A DNA stretch of 29,702 nt from Candidatus Gastranaerophilales bacterium (GCA_947625445.1 CANQOM010000001.1:1-29702), one strand, 5' to 3'; numbered from the stretch's first letter, positions 13,318 to 19,154 are shown. Numbers and translations: made by a program. The notes: generated by a model from the letters alone, not told the origin.

Positions 13318-13403
13318 TTTATCCCCAATCAATGTATCAATTTTATCATAAAATCTTATAATATAACTATATTGTGAATATTTTTAAAATCACTTAATAT
13401 TAC

Positions 13404-13434
13404 TTGACTTAGTGTTACTATCAAATATTAAAAT
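13404..13434 (+). promoter_or_regulatory. sigma70 promoter with over-long 19-nt spacer and partial dyad (MerR-type architecture) upstream of the Tat/AKR operon
   Basis: TTGACT (13404-13409), TAGTGTTACTATCAAATAT (19 nt), TAAAAT (13429-13434). Closely similar element at 19124-19154. Confidence 0.55.
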
Positions 13435-13453
13435 GTATAAAAAAGGAGAAAAT

Positions 13454-14682
13454 ATGAAACGTCGTGAATTTATATTAAATTCTATACTCGCAGCAGGAGG
13501 AACAGTATTATTAACAGGCTGCGGAAAAAAAGAACTTATTAAAGCTCAAGGACAAGTTGTAAAGAGAAAATACAAAGATATAGAAGTACCTTTATCGGCT
13601 TTGGTTGTATGAGACTGCCTATGGACGGCAAAAAGGTTGATATGGCAGAACTTGACAGAATGGTAGAGTATGCAATGGCTCATGGAGCTAATTATTTTGA
13701 CACTGCTTATATGTATGTCGATGAAATGAGTGAGATTGCTATTGGTAAAACACTTAAAAAATATGAAAGAGATTCTTTTATACTTGCAGATAAAAGTCCT
13801 ATATATAAAATGAGTTCACGAGAAGATGTAAGAAAAATATTTGATGAACAAAGAAAAAAGTGTCAGGTAGACTATTATGATTTTTATATGTGCCACAATA
13901 TTAACGTAAATACGGTTGATACGTACAGAAATGTCAAAATGTATGATGAACTGTTAAAATTAAAAGAAGAAGGTAAAATAAAATATTTAGGTTTCTCTTT
14001 CCATGGTACACCTGAAATATTGAGAGAAGTTGTAAAAGAACATCAATGGGATTTCGCTCAGCTTCAAGTTAATTATCTGGATTGGGATGTTGTAAAAGCT
14101 CATGAACAGTATGATATTGTTCAAGCTGAAGGTATACCTGTTACTGTAATGGAACCTTTAAGAGGAGGCGGATTAGTTAATTTAAGTGAAAAATCACTTG
14201 CAAAATTAAAAGAACATTATCCTAATGCAACTCCTGCAGAGTTTGGACTAAGATGGGCTGCTTCAAGAGCTAATGTTATTACAGTTTTGAGCGGTATGAG
14301 TAATTTACAACAGATGAAAGAAAATATTGCCACTTTTGAAAACTATATTCCAATGAGTGAAGATGAGATAAAAGTGGCAGATGAGATGGCGAAAATTATT
14401 CAATCACAAGGTGAAATAAATTGTACTGCTTGTAAGTATTGTATGGAAGTTTGCCCTAAAGGTATTAACATTCCTGCTATTTTCTCACTTTATAATCAGT
14501 ATAAAGTAATGAAAAGTCCTTTTCATTTAAAAATATATTATGAAACGCTTGCAGATAGTGAAAAAGCAAATAATTGCATAAAATGCGGTTTATGTAATAA
14601 AAATTGCCCTCAAAATTTACCTATACCTGATTTATTGGCACAGGTTCAAAGTGAGTATGAAAAGGCAAAGGCTAGTTCATAA
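13454..14682 (+). pseudogene. Tat-lipoprotein aldo/keto reductase with C-terminal 2x[4Fe-4S] domain, split by a 1-nt frameshift near 13591-13594 (pseudogene or sequencing error)
   Basis: AGGAG RBS then MKRREFILNSILAAGGTVLLTGC (RR motif + lipobox). Adding one base joins KRKYKDIEVPL to IGFGCMRLP in the second frame. AKR residues DTAYMY, ADK, HN; C-terminal CTACKYCMEVCP and CIKCGLCNKNCP. Repaired length about 409 aa. Confidence 0.85.
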
Positions 14683-15956
14683 TGTTATATAAAATAAGAT
14701 TTTTTATTGCAATTTTAGTATTTTTAATGGCAATAGTCGGCTTATTGGGTATTTTTTACCCTCTGCCGATTTTTGATGTTCAAATTGCTCCTTTAATTCA
14801 AAAAGTAATTATCGATTTTACGGTTATTGCCTTTATAACATTAGTTTTAATCATATTATTAACATTATTATTTGGCAGAATTTATTGTTCCGTTCTGTGT
14901 CCGTTCGGAATTTTTCAAGAATTTATTGCATTGTTAAGGGGAAAAAATAAGGAAAAAACAAGAGCTAATTTGCCGATAAAATACTTTATTTCTGCAATAA
15001 CATTCGGTGCATTAATCGGTGGAAGCGTATTAATTATAAGATATATAGAACCTTATACATATTTTGGTTCTGTTGTTACTTTGTCAATTATCGGAATTGT
15101 TGCGGCTATTATAATTTTAATACTTACTTTATCAAAAAACAGATATTTTTGCACAAATATATGTCCTGTAGGTTGTATTTTGGGACTGATTTCTAAGGTA
15201 TCATTACTTAAAATTCATATTAAAAAGGAAGATTGTGTATCTTGCAGGAAATGTGAAAAAAATTGTCCGTCCGGTTGCATAAGTATAGATACTCAAAATA
15301 TAGAAAATGAAACTTGCATAAAATGTTTAAAATGTATAGGATTGTGCCCTAAAAAAGCAATAAAATATTCTGTAAAACCCAAACAAGAAATAATATTTAG
15401 TCCAAAAAGACGTGAATTATTAATAGCAGGTTCTGCGCTTGTTATTCTTATAGGAGCGCTTAAGGCTGGATATGAATTAAGTAAAAATATGGCTCGTAAT
15501 GTCAGAAATGTAATTCTTCCTCTGGGGGCAATGAATGCAAACAGAATGTATAATAAATGTTTAAATTGTAATTTATGTGTAAAAGCATGCCCGAACAAAA
15601 TTTTAAAAAAAGCTGATAATAATTTTGGTGCTATTCATACAGATTATAATGAAGGTGAAAAATTCTGTAAATTTGACTGTATTGAGTGTTCTAAAGTTTG
15701 TCCTTCAGGTGCAATTAAAAAACTTAGTGTGGAAGAAAAACAGAGAACAAGGATTGCTATGGCGGTAATTAATCCTGAGAAGTGTACAAAATGCGGGATT
15801 TGTGTTTCAGAATGTCCTACAGGCGCAATAACAAAAGAAGAAAATAAAAATGCTATAGTAGATGCTTCAAAATGTATAGGTTGCGGAAAATGCAAAAAAC
15901 ATTGTCCTGCAAGTGCTATTGAAATATTTGCAATAAATGAGCAACAAAGGGTATAA
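14682..15956 (+). CDS. Membrane polyferredoxin (NapH/MauN-like N-half fused to NapG/MauM-like C-half), 5 predicted TM helices, internal twin-arginine motif
   Basis: Four N-terminal hydrophobic helices with CSVLCPFG and CTNICPVG motifs, two CxxCxxCxxxC motifs, SPKRRELL plus a fifth helix, then four more ferredoxin-type Cys motifs. Confidence 0.85.
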
Positions 15957-15976
15957 TCTTTTTAAAGGAGAATAAA

Positions 15977-16192
15977 ATGTCACTTGGAATAACTGAAATT
16001 ACTTTAATTATAGTTGTAATATTGCTCCTGTTTGGAGGTAAAAGAATACCTGAATTGGCAAGAGCTTTAGGTAAAGCATCTTATGAATTTAAAAAAGCTA
16101 AAGAGACTATAAAAAAAGAAACTGATGAATTAAAAGATGCGATAGAAGATGCACAAGAAAAACCTGAAGAATATAAACCTAAAGATGTCTAA
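15977..16192 (+). CDS. tatA: Twin-arginine translocase subunit TatA
   Basis: Short TM ending [25 protein letters not shown], charged tail, AAGGAG RBS. Confidence 0.93.
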
Positions 16193-16194
16193 AA

Positions 16195-18054: not shown

Positions 18055-18092
18055 AAAATTAGTATGTGATTTATTCACATACTAATTTTTTA
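18052..18092. terminator. Bidirectional intrinsic terminator between convergent genes
   Basis: Perfect 18-bp inverted repeat TAAAAAATTAGTATGTGA / TCACATACTAATTTTTTA with a 5-nt loop; A/T tracts on both sides. Confidence 0.85.
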
Positions 18093-18105
18093 TTTTTGAT
18101 TATAA

Positions 18106-18987
18106 TTATGATTGTTTAATAATTGACTTTAAAGCCGTTAATTCATAATCGTTATAATTGGAATCTTTAAAAATTCCATTTAAGTCGTCTTCAGTTATTT
18201 CTGTGTTTAATCCCATATAATCCATTGTGGCTTTTATATTGATAAATTCTTCTATATTGGAACCGGATTTTGCAAGATCGTTTAAACTTTTTGTATATAT
18301 AGTGTTAATTCTATTGTTATAGCCTGATGTATTTAAATAATCTTTATCAAAGTTTTCGCCAAATTTGTTATATGCCATTTTCAATAATTTTATTTTTGTC
18401 TGACTTTCTGTTTGGTCATAACCACAAATACGAGAAATAATGTTTCCGAATGTATTATCTCCTGGATTAACTGATTTTGTATTAATCATATCATATATTT
18501 CTTTTACTTTGTCGTTTGCTAGTTCTTCATCAGTAAGACTACTATTTGGTTCAAATTTAATATCACCGCCTTTAACTTTAGTAGTTTTAGTTGTTTTTAA
18601 ATCTTCATCATTTTCATATATTTTATTTTTGCTTTCATCATAGGGTGTATTTTTAATGTATAAATCATTATCTTTATAATCATTTGCAAGGTCCATTAAT
18701 CCTGAAAATACTTGTTCTTTTACTGATTCATCATTATAATCTAAATTTATACTACTTAAATATGAATTAAGTGCCCCTTCGTTATGACTGTACCAGGTAT
18801 TAAATTCTTCCTGAGTAATAGTGGCATCATCATCGCTTAAAACATTTTGTAAATGTCCTCTTGAGAAAAAAACAGAAATTTCTTCGTCACTTAAATTTCC
18901 GTCTGTATTGTTCTTACCCGATTCATTATTTGTTAAGTATTGTTCATTTTGAATAAGGTAATCCTTCATGTTAATTCCATCTGTCAT
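18106..18987 (-). CDS. Orphan acidic Asn/Asp-rich hypothetical protein (293 aa) with two degenerate EF-hand-like loops
   Basis: Strong AGGAG RBS 6 nt upstream, long ORF filling the gap, no signal peptide or TM; loops KNNTDGNLSDEE and LSDDDATITQEE. Confidence 0.75.
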   Translation of the reverse strand: MTDGINMKDYLIQNEQYLTNNESGKNNTDGNLSDEEISVFFSRGHLQNVLSDDDATITQEEFNTWYSHNEGALNSYLSSINLDYNDESVKEQVFSGLMDLANDYKDNDLYIKNTPYDESKNKIYENDEDLKTTKTTKVKGGDIKFEPNSSLTDEELANDKVKEIYDMINTKSVNPGDNTFGNIISRICGYDQTESQTKIKLLKMAYNKFGENFDKDYLNTSGYNNRINTIYTKSLNDLAKSGSNIEEFINIKATMDYMGLNTEITEDDLNGIFKDSNYNDYELTALKSIIKQS

Positions 18988-19019
18988 ACTAGTCTCCTTT
19001 TGTTGTTACTACAAGTCTA

Positions 19020-19044
19020 TTATCGGCACGGGGGGGGGACTTGA
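19020..19044 (-). promoter_or_regulatory. Putative sigma28 (FliA/SigD)-type promoter with a C9 tract in the spacer
   Basis: Minus strand reads TCAA-GTCCCCCCCCCGT-GCCGATAA: exact sigma28 -10 octamer 32 nt upstream of the ATG, TCAA(G) -35, spacer 13 nt versus canonical 15. Confidence 0.6.
19030..19038. repeat. G9/C9 homopolymer in intergenic promoter region
   Basis: GCAC-GGGGGGGGG-ACTT read directly. Confidence 0.9.
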
Positions 19045-19123
19045 GGGTATTTTTTGAAATTTTTACAAAAATTTACATAGAAAAATGAAAAATTTTTTGG
19101 GATAAACTTGTTTTATAATTATC

Positions 19124-19154
19124 TTGACTGATAGTAACTGTCAAAAGGTAAAAT
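19124..19154 (+). promoter_or_regulatory. sigma70 promoter with 19-nt spacer and dyad TGATAGT-A-ACTGTCA upstream of larB
   Basis: TTGACT (19124-19129), GATAGTAACTGTCAAAAGG (19 nt), TAAAAT (19149-19154); 7-1-7 dyad (6/7 match) beginning at the last base of the -35. Confidence 0.6.

Follow-up and report, generated by a model that had tools for sequence, protein, structure and literature searches.

Promoters under the control of MerR, CueR, CadR/PbrR and BmrR have a 19-bp spacer between the −35 and −10 boxes, and in CueR and CadR-PbrR sites a dyad begins where the −35 box ends and has its centre 7 bp away from this box (PMC5045206). We studied two promoters of the same layout in a 29,702-nucleotide stretch of DNA from Candidatus Gastranaerophilales bacterium (GCA_947625445.1, CANQOM010000001.1:1-29702; hereafter the window). 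One stands in front of an operon that encodes an aldo-keto reductase (AKR) with a [4Fe-4S] domain, a membrane polyferredoxin and the twin-arginine translocation (Tat) components TatA and TatC. The other stands in front of larB, larC and a nikMN-type gene, i.e., genes that serve to make the nickel-pincer cofactor and to take up nickel. Both promoters probably carry an operator for one and the same regulator. This would be a MerR-family member of the NmlR/AdhR subfamily, 131 aa long, which is encoded on contig C140 of the same genome and would be switched by electrophiles or oxidants.

The most similar regulators that have been described are HiNmlR and AdhR. HiNmlR of Haemophilus influenzae (HI_0186; PDB 5E01, 5D8C and 5D90) is, like the C140 protein, a small MerR-family regulator without a C-terminal sensor domain. 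Its essential Cys54 is matched by Cys53 of the C140 protein, and detoxifying oxidoreductases make up its regulon, as they do in the regulon predicted here. NmlR and HiNmlR are described as not binding metal ions (PMC5001606). AdhR (YraB) of Bacillus subtilis is likewise a thiol-based activator of the MerR/NmlR type, and acts on carbonyl-stress genes (PMC4776306). Its targets adhA, encoding an alcohol dehydrogenase, and yraC, of the carboxymuconolactone decarboxylase (CMD) family, have counterparts in the Fe-ADH and CMD genes that follow operators in the present lineage (PMC4776306). The cysteine equivalent to HiNmlR Cys54 and AdhR Cys52 is absolutely conserved in the clade and needed for activation (PMC5001606, PMC4776306).

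The system predicted here differs from these precedents in several ways. Unlike those of NmlR, its targets include nickel-pincer cofactor genes. The regulon is much larger than that of AdhR and rich in flavodoxins, and it contains an exported Fe-S AKR module, a DXS-like gene and the Lar/Nik genes. Compared with canonical MerR-family systems, the core dyad is 15 bp (7-1-7) rather than 21–22 bp, and the regulator lacks a metal- or drug-binding C-terminal region.

A separate precedent concerns the enzymes. Semersky et al. (Nat Chem 2026, PMC13524815) reported 427 instances of AKRs encoded next to larBCE. One such protein, NphT (PDB 9YEB), binds a nickel-pincer mononucleotide via His144 and Lys200, and in 40% of the Lar-linked AKRs the His is present and the Lys absent (PMC13524815). 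That paper makes no mention of Fe-S domains, Tat export, the periplasm or regulation, and the regulon predicted here would offer a regulatory context for nickel-pincer AKRs. There is therefore precedent for the type of regulator and for the promoter mechanism and, since 2026, also for the link between AKR and Lar. New are the predicted regulon in this order, the apparent placement of nickel-pincer genes under an NmlR/AdhR-like sensor, and what appears to be an exported Fe-S form of the Lar-linked AKR.

Promoter 1 (13404..13434, plus strand) has the −35 box TTGACT at 13404-13409 and the −10 box TAAAAT at 13429-13434. In promoter 2 (19124..19154, plus strand), the same two boxes lie at 19124-19129 and 19149-19154. 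Both spacers are 19 nt and agree at 11 of 19 positions (P ~0.009 by composition), exactly as an earlier reading of the sequence alone had described them. The dyad takes up positions 6-20 of the 31-nt promoter, such that its first base is the last one of the −35 box and the distance from that box to the dyad centre is 7 bp. In site 2, the dyad claimed earlier, TGATAGT-A-ACTGTCA, is indeed present at 19129-19143. Site 1 has TTAGTGT-T-ACTATCA at 13409-13423, of which the right arm equals the consensus. The relation noted between the arms also holds, given that GTTACTATCA is on the plus strand in site 1 and on the minus strand in site 2. The asserted likeness of the two promoter/operators thus stands for the boxes and the spacer, but it needs a correction in that the left half-site of site 1 (TTAGTGT) is degenerate. 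The ATG of the AKR gene is 19 nt 3′ of the −10 box of site 1 and is preceded by AAAGGAG.

The larB ATG (19161) lies 6 nt 3′ of the end of the −10 box of site 2. No Shine-Dalgarno sequence precedes it (19149-19163), and the same is true of 14 orthologous loci (among L108-L130). This absence, together with the short distance between the −10 box and the ATG, makes a leaderless larB mRNA likely.

Exact matches to TTGACT-N19-TAAAAT are expected 0.04–0.05 times per window, yet two were observed. Two or more have a probability of ~0.0007 and arose in one of 2000 Markov simulations. The whole 1.72-Mb genome contains five exact matches. When up to one mismatch was permitted, the scan of the window yielded two sites versus 1.12 expected, which is not significant. 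Therefore, the significance rests on the exact match, on the location of both sites immediately before the start of an operon and on the comparative data. The one-mismatch result and the low G+C content of the genome (29%) are what might be expected if two AT-rich promoters resembled each other by chance. This explanation is refuted by the exact double match, by the clear gap in matrix scores that sets four sites apart from all others in the genome (see below), and by the conservation of the sites across families of the order, where the reversed control of a degenerate pattern gave zero matches. The observation of two matching promoters is confirmed and is not due to chance.

The window is contig 1 of an assembly of 1.72 Mb in 229 contigs, which is 84% complete. 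The host belongs to an uncultured gut lineage of non-photosynthetic relatives of Cyanobacteria. The public runs that contain DNA of the window are rabbit-gut metagenomes, in which this DNA occurs at low depth.

The promoter layout is conserved across the order Gastranaerophilales. The consensus consists of a −35 box, a 7-1-7 dyad TGA(T/G)AGT-N-ACT(A/C)TCA centred 7 bp from it and a 19-nt spacer. In 40 relatives, a strict core pattern had 22 matches and its reversed control 5. A degenerate pattern of 20 nt, TTGACTGAKAGYWRCTMTCA, which takes in the −35 box, was present in 58 of the order's 121 genomes, usually 1–6 times each, and its reversed control matched none of the 121. We took 80 sites from 20 genomes. 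In all 80, the spacer is 19 nt and the −10 box is TAnnnT-like, and 78 are followed by the start of an open reading frame (ORF) at a distance of 5–80 nt (193 nt in one case).

Phylogenetic footprinting of both upstream regions, a check that the sequence-only reading had suggested, supports both window sites. Among close LarB orthologues, 14 of 24 have the site, with a −10 box that ends 5–7 nt before the ATG; at most of the other 10 loci, larB comes directly after the preceding gene. A high-scoring site was found at 22 of 30 AKR loci, either directly upstream or ~650 nt upstream of the gene, and in the latter arrangement a membrane-anchored Flavodoxin_4 gene stands between. These conserved sites are in agreement with the earlier idea of one regulator for both operons.

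We scanned the genome with a position-weight matrix trained only on sites from relatives. Four sites stood out, at 43.9 bits (larB), 37.8 bits (contig C39), 36.7 bits (contig C12) and 30.9 bits (AKR, i.e., site 1), scores that are partly circular because the training sites were chosen with a consensus filter. The gap between these four sites and the rest is not circular: no other site in the 1.7-Mb genome exceeded 12 bits, and the maximum in the reversed-sequence control was 14.2 bits. The C39 promoter has the boxes TTGCCT and TATGAT with a perfect dyad, TGATAGT-A-ACTATCA, in the spacer, and lies upstream of a DUF362 gene. The C12 promoter, on the minus strand, reads TTGACT-N19-TAATAT and precedes an FMN_red gene that is followed by a Flavodoxin_4 gene. 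A dyad scan of the genome showed that these two sites have the 19-nt spacer as well. The genome scan thus recovered both window sites, and both operons belong to the predicted regulon. What did not hold is its size, which was given as two operons. In the explanation that we regard as likely overall, the regulon of this genome would comprise four promoters, driving the AKR-polyferredoxin-TatAC operon, larB-larC-nikMN, the DUF362 gene, and the operon of an FMN reductase and Flavodoxin_4. As part of the same explanation, both window sites would be sigma-70-type promoters with an over-long 19-bp spacer.

The DUF362 gene (C39:6791-7675; L022:1555-2436) has the sole perfect operator in the genome. 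The encoded protein has a sub-threshold match to Lar_N, the N-domain of LarA (E ~7e-4 to 1e-3), and DUF362 and the LarA N-domain are placed in one Pfam clan (PMC11770544). Beyond this match, nothing was found when a LarA-type enzyme was sought in this genome. In one relative (G093), a DUF362 paralogue adjoins the AKR-Lar cluster. The DUF362 target co-occurs only loosely with LarB (7 of 11 genomes). It is possible that the DUF362 protein is a further nickel-pincer client.

A MerR-type regulator had been predicted from the promoters, with no regulator gene in the window. We found no MerR gene in the window either, and a listing of MerR-family genes in the genome gave one clear case, the gene on C140 (2755-3150, minus strand; MerR_1 E 3e-18). 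A second MerR-like frame, on C163, is short and weak (64 aa, 27 bits). The best NCBIfam match of the C140 protein is NmlR (NF041849; E 1.7e-25, 89.4 bits), and its best PDB match is HiNmlR (5e01/5d90; E 6e-24, residues 2-115), in which Cys54 (‘llqClkntg’ of 5E01) aligns with Cys53 of the C140 protein (‘ivkClrevg’).

The regulator is linked to the operator both by its phyletic distribution and by position. The 121 genomes, which are related and whose counts are not independent samples, contain the regulator in 60 cases and the motif in 58; both are present in 56, the regulator alone in 4, the motif alone in 2 and neither in 59. We fetched 80 regulator loci with the C140 protein and found sites of the same build within 3 kb in ~35 of them. 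Ten of the sites are divergent from the regulator gene, 2–3 are directly upstream of it and ~15 are upstream of a preceding DXS-like gene. The divergent arrangement of regulator and target, at ~10 of 80 loci, is a likeness to canonical MerR-family systems. These loci cover 0.5 Mb, in which a density of ~4 sites per 1.7 Mb would give about one site by chance. At L015, in one relative, the operator is directly upstream of the orthologous regulator gene. Conversely, the AKR loci of five genomes without the regulator (G135, G078, G063, G100 and G080) have no site, and in the first four of these the AKR-Lar cluster is present without the operator. Upstream of larB in G135 (L113), where the regulator was not found, there is a degenerate promoter copy, TTGACA TAGAGCTGCCTCCAGGTGA TAGGAT, which looks like an operator that is decaying after loss of the regulator.

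These data bear on whether the dyad might instead be the operator of a steric repressor from another family, with a MerR link that is accidental or indirect. The spacer between the −35 and −10 boxes is a classic repressor position too. However, such a repressor would not need the invariant 19-nt spacer (80 of 80 sites), which is a hallmark of MerR promoters (PMC5001606, PMC5045206), and the operator co-occurs almost perfectly with, and frequently adjoins, a MerR gene. We therefore consider a steric repressor very improbable. The MerR-type reading of the promoters is upheld by the constant spacer, the canonical geometry of the dyad and the MerR gene that co-occurs with the sites and often abuts them.

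The sequence-only reading had left it open whether the regulator senses a metal or an electrophile. The protein is closest to HiNmlR and AdhR, lacks a C-terminal sensor domain and has Cys53; for these reasons, sensing of electrophile or thiol stress is more likely than metal sensing, such that the electrophile half of the proposal is favored and the metal half is not. The contents of the regulon point in the same direction. The first genes behind the 78 sites include FMN_red (13), Flavodoxin_4 (12), AKR (11, of which ~5 are of the Fe-S type), DXS (10), LarB (9), CMD (8), cupin (7) and Fe-ADH (3) genes. Other genes behind operators in relatives encode DUF3737, EamA, an SDR and CxxCxxCC proteins. 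This set appears to fit a carbonyl, quinone or oxidant response better than metal homeostasis.

A nickel or cobalt sensor similar to CueR, ZntR or CadR, controlling a regulon for nickel homeostasis with uptake and cofactor synthesis, would explain why LarB, LarC and the CbiM/NikMN transporter are encoded behind one operator. In CueR/CadR-type sites, too, the dyad centre is 7 bp from the −35 box (PMC5045206), and the NCBIfam models of ZntR, CueR and CadR match the regulator weakly (E 1e-8 to 1e-11). By contrast, the protein ends soon after the dimerisation helix, without a C-terminal sensor region, and both of its cysteines are within the DNA-binding domain. Its best matches by far are NmlR and HiNmlR, which do not bind metal according to PMC5001606. 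Moreover, the regulon consists mostly of flavoproteins, AKRs, alcohol dehydrogenases, CMD proteins and cupins rather than metal-handling genes, and induction of nickel uptake by excess nickel would be an odd logic. A metal sensor is thus an unlikely explanation, and we continue with an NmlR/AdhR-like electrophile sensor.

The DXS-like gene (582-595 aa, PF13292) ranks among the genes that most often come first behind the operator, and it is frequently followed directly by the regulator gene (L028, L031, L036, L044, L046, L048, L052 and others). DXS is the first enzyme of the MEP (methylerythritol phosphate) pathway, and the gene, which could encode this enzyme or a paralogue, would be under an electrophile-type sensor.

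We propose the following mechanism. A dimer of the regulator would sit on the 7-1-7 dyad inside the 19-bp spacer and, when unmodified, would keep the promoter poorly active. An electrophile or oxidant, e.g., an aldehyde, a quinone or a similar thiol-reactive species, would modify the conserved Cys53, and the modified dimer would underwind the spacer, such that transcription starts. The response would raise cytoplasmic flavoprotein and AKR/ADH detoxifiers and also the exported, lipid-anchored AKR-[4Fe-4S] protein with its polyferredoxin and the TatAC translocase. The nickel-pincer cofactor and the nickel supply, which the AKR probably needs, would be raised together with it. Regulator and operator would form a defined pair that, for organisms that cannot be grown, can be studied in vitro or serve as a reporter.

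The AKR and lar blocks are linked beyond their promoters. Close orthologues of LarB and of the AKR occur in the same 24 of 121 genomes, on the same contigs and 3–5 kb apart. The usual gene order in relatives is Flavodoxin_4, AKR, polyferredoxin, tatA, tatC, larB, larC, nikMN, with larB ~2.3–3 kb or less after the AKR block, and in some genomes there is no larB-type promoter between the two blocks. It is thus probable, as part of the explanation favored here, that the AKR and Lar/Nik blocks are one conserved accessory cluster. The earlier suggestion of a shared, undescribed nickel-linked pathway is borne out as to the link between the operons, through synteny and co-occurrence. It can no longer be called undescribed, given that nickel-pincer AKRs were published in 2026 (PMC13524815).

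The pairing of an AKR with Lar proteins has a rationale because AKRs that depend on the nickel-pincer nucleotide, such as NphT, are known (PMC13524815). Like NphT, the window AKR is a PF00248 enzyme genetically linked to larB and larC, and has lost the canonical GxSN motif. In an alignment of 25 orthologues, an invariant GFSFHG replaces this motif, and its His appears to lie near the place of NphT T142/H144. A search of the PDB with the AKR family gave NphT (9yeb_A) at E 5.6e-7 and rank 21; canonical AKRs such as 1YNP scored better, and 9YEB was absent from the matches when the beta5-beta7 segment was the query. NphT is a chain of 291 residues, whereas the window AKR adds a Tat signal, a lipobox and 2x[4Fe-4S] and has a NapH/NapG-like polyferredoxin partner. 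Most likely, LarB, LarE and LarC make the nickel-pincer nucleotide that serves the AKR as its cofactor, a reading that we consider well motivated.

In the predicted regulon, the genes for a candidate nickel-pincer AKR, for the synthesis of its likely cofactor and for the uptake of nickel have the same operator as genes typical of carbonyl and quinone stress. This sharing points to defence against reactive electrophiles as the working context of nickel-pincer AKRs. A bolder reading, which we offer tentatively and think could well be wrong, is that the cluster is the first extracytoplasmic nickel-pincer enzyme system, in which a Tat-exported, lipid-anchored AKR would hold the nickel-pincer nucleotide as its hydride carrier in bound form, in a compartment that lacks NAD(P)H, and would be induced by a stress sensor. 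If this is true, the [4Fe-4S] clusters and the NapH/NapG-like polyferredoxin would recharge the AKR from the cell interior, and a thiol-based carbonyl/quinone sensor would also turn on cofactor synthesis and nickel import. In gut anaerobes, nickel-pincer AKRs would then have the role of detoxifying reactive electrophiles outside the cytoplasm.

Several observations weigh against the proposed NmlR/AdhR-like regulon and its connection to nickel-pincer chemistry. The targets of HiNmlR have divergent promoters that overlap, and its operators there flank the −35 box (PMC5001606), while the dyad here is inside the 19-bp spacer. This atypical NmlR architecture was not encountered, given that the dyad shares a single base with the −35 box. 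The score of the regulator, 89.4 bits, is below the NmlR equivalog cut-off of 175, and the protein is NmlR-like rather than an equivalog. Its second cysteine, Cys71, is one residue off the position of Cys71 in HiNmlR. There is no operator upstream of this genome's own regulator gene, which is divergent from a CysK-like gene. Regarding the enzyme, the tethering Lys (K200 of NphT) seems to be replaced in the window AKR, whose beta-7 motif, MEPLRGG, has no Lys, and the His of GFSFHG is a tentative counterpart of that in NphT, to which the match is weak. A LarC C-terminal domain, or a second PF01969 match, was not found anywhere in the 84%-complete genome. Finally, the left arm of site 1 is weak and a frameshift splits the first gene behind this site, such that promoter 1 may be decaying in this genome.

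The AKR gene is in two pieces. Its 5′ part (13454..13612, plus strand) encodes a Tat signal (KRREF), a lipobox (LLTGC) and a linker, and ends at a TGA through the frameshift. The body of the AKR with the C-terminal 2x[4Fe-4S] follows in another frame (13594..14682, plus strand; Aldo_ket_red E 6e-43, Fer4 families). Relative to the orthologues, 1 nt is missing at ~13594/13595 (GTACCTTTA|TCGGC). The orthologues are single ORFs of 408-413 aa that read V-P-L-(L/I)-G-F-G-C-M-R-L-P across the break, and all 25 that were aligned are intact. Logan contigs of four rabbit-gut runs cover 13300-19400 at a depth of 0–5, with the bin 13504-13707 uncovered. The split could be a true pseudogene or an assembly error at low coverage, and either is possible.

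If it is a true pseudogene, the regulon could be real in the order while promoter 1 and the AKR operon decay in this genome and only the larB promoter works. In line with this, site 1 scores 30.9 bits versus 40–50 bits for most orthologous AKR sites, the nucleotide is missing where 25 orthologues are intact, and AKR genes are also broken in three other genomes (G119, G128 and G057). On the other hand, a left-arm variant that differs from that of site 1 by one base, TTAGAGT, recurs in intact sites of relatives (L189, L233 and L248), and the genes farther downstream, for the polyferredoxin and TatAC, are intact. Also, an assembly error may be to blame, given the low coverage of the metagenome-assembled genome and a gap in the available contigs at the frameshift. 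We regard decay of the first promoter as rather unlikely, and prefer the reading in which both promoters serve the regulon.

The remaining genes of the two operons agree with the earlier gene calls, which were an AKR with a 4Fe-4S domain, a polyferredoxin, TatA, TatC, LarB, an N-terminal part of LarC and CbiM/NikMN. All lie on the plus strand. The membrane polyferredoxin gene (14682..15956) encodes a NapH-like N-terminal half (NF007013, E 2e-31) and a NapG/ferredoxin-like C-terminal half (NF007012, E 9e-17). It is followed by tatA (15977-16192; Pfam TatA_B_E, E 9.5e-17) and tatC (16195-16905; Pfam TatC, E 3e-56). In the second operon, larB (19161..19859) encodes the nickel-pincer cofactor carboxylase/hydrolase and matches NCBIfam LarB (NF033503) at E 8e-85, above the cut-off. 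The larC gene (19828..20589) encodes an N-terminal part only, i.e., 253 aa that cover positions 1-234 of the 375 in the Pfam profile. The next gene (20602-21507) encodes a fused metal-uptake component of the CbiM/NikM-NikN type (Pfam CbiM, E 7e-48; PDGLE). A larE gene is present outside the window, at C66:2087-2866.

Between tatC and the larB promoter (16954-18987) there are an Acyltransferase_3 (Acyl_transf_3) gene, assigned by its family match (16954-18054, plus strand), and a minus-strand ORF of 293 aa without a family match. Relatives lack the acyltransferase gene at this place. Because larB directly follows the AKR-Tat block there, the acyltransferase gene and the minus-strand ORF look like an insertion between the AKR-Tat and lar blocks. 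An 18-pair hairpin terminator at 18052-18092 comes after the acyltransferase gene and is the probable end of the transcript from promoter 1. The divergent intergenic region farther downstream contains a run of nine G at ~19032-19041.

A GC-rich hairpin (21530-21558, plus strand) after the CbiM/NikMN gene probably ends the larB operon. Behind this hairpin is a gene for a CxxCxxCC protein (PF03692; 21579-22145), which has no operator in the window. Genes of relatives whose products have a similar N-terminal sequence have an operator of their own (L182, L186, L215, L219 and L231).

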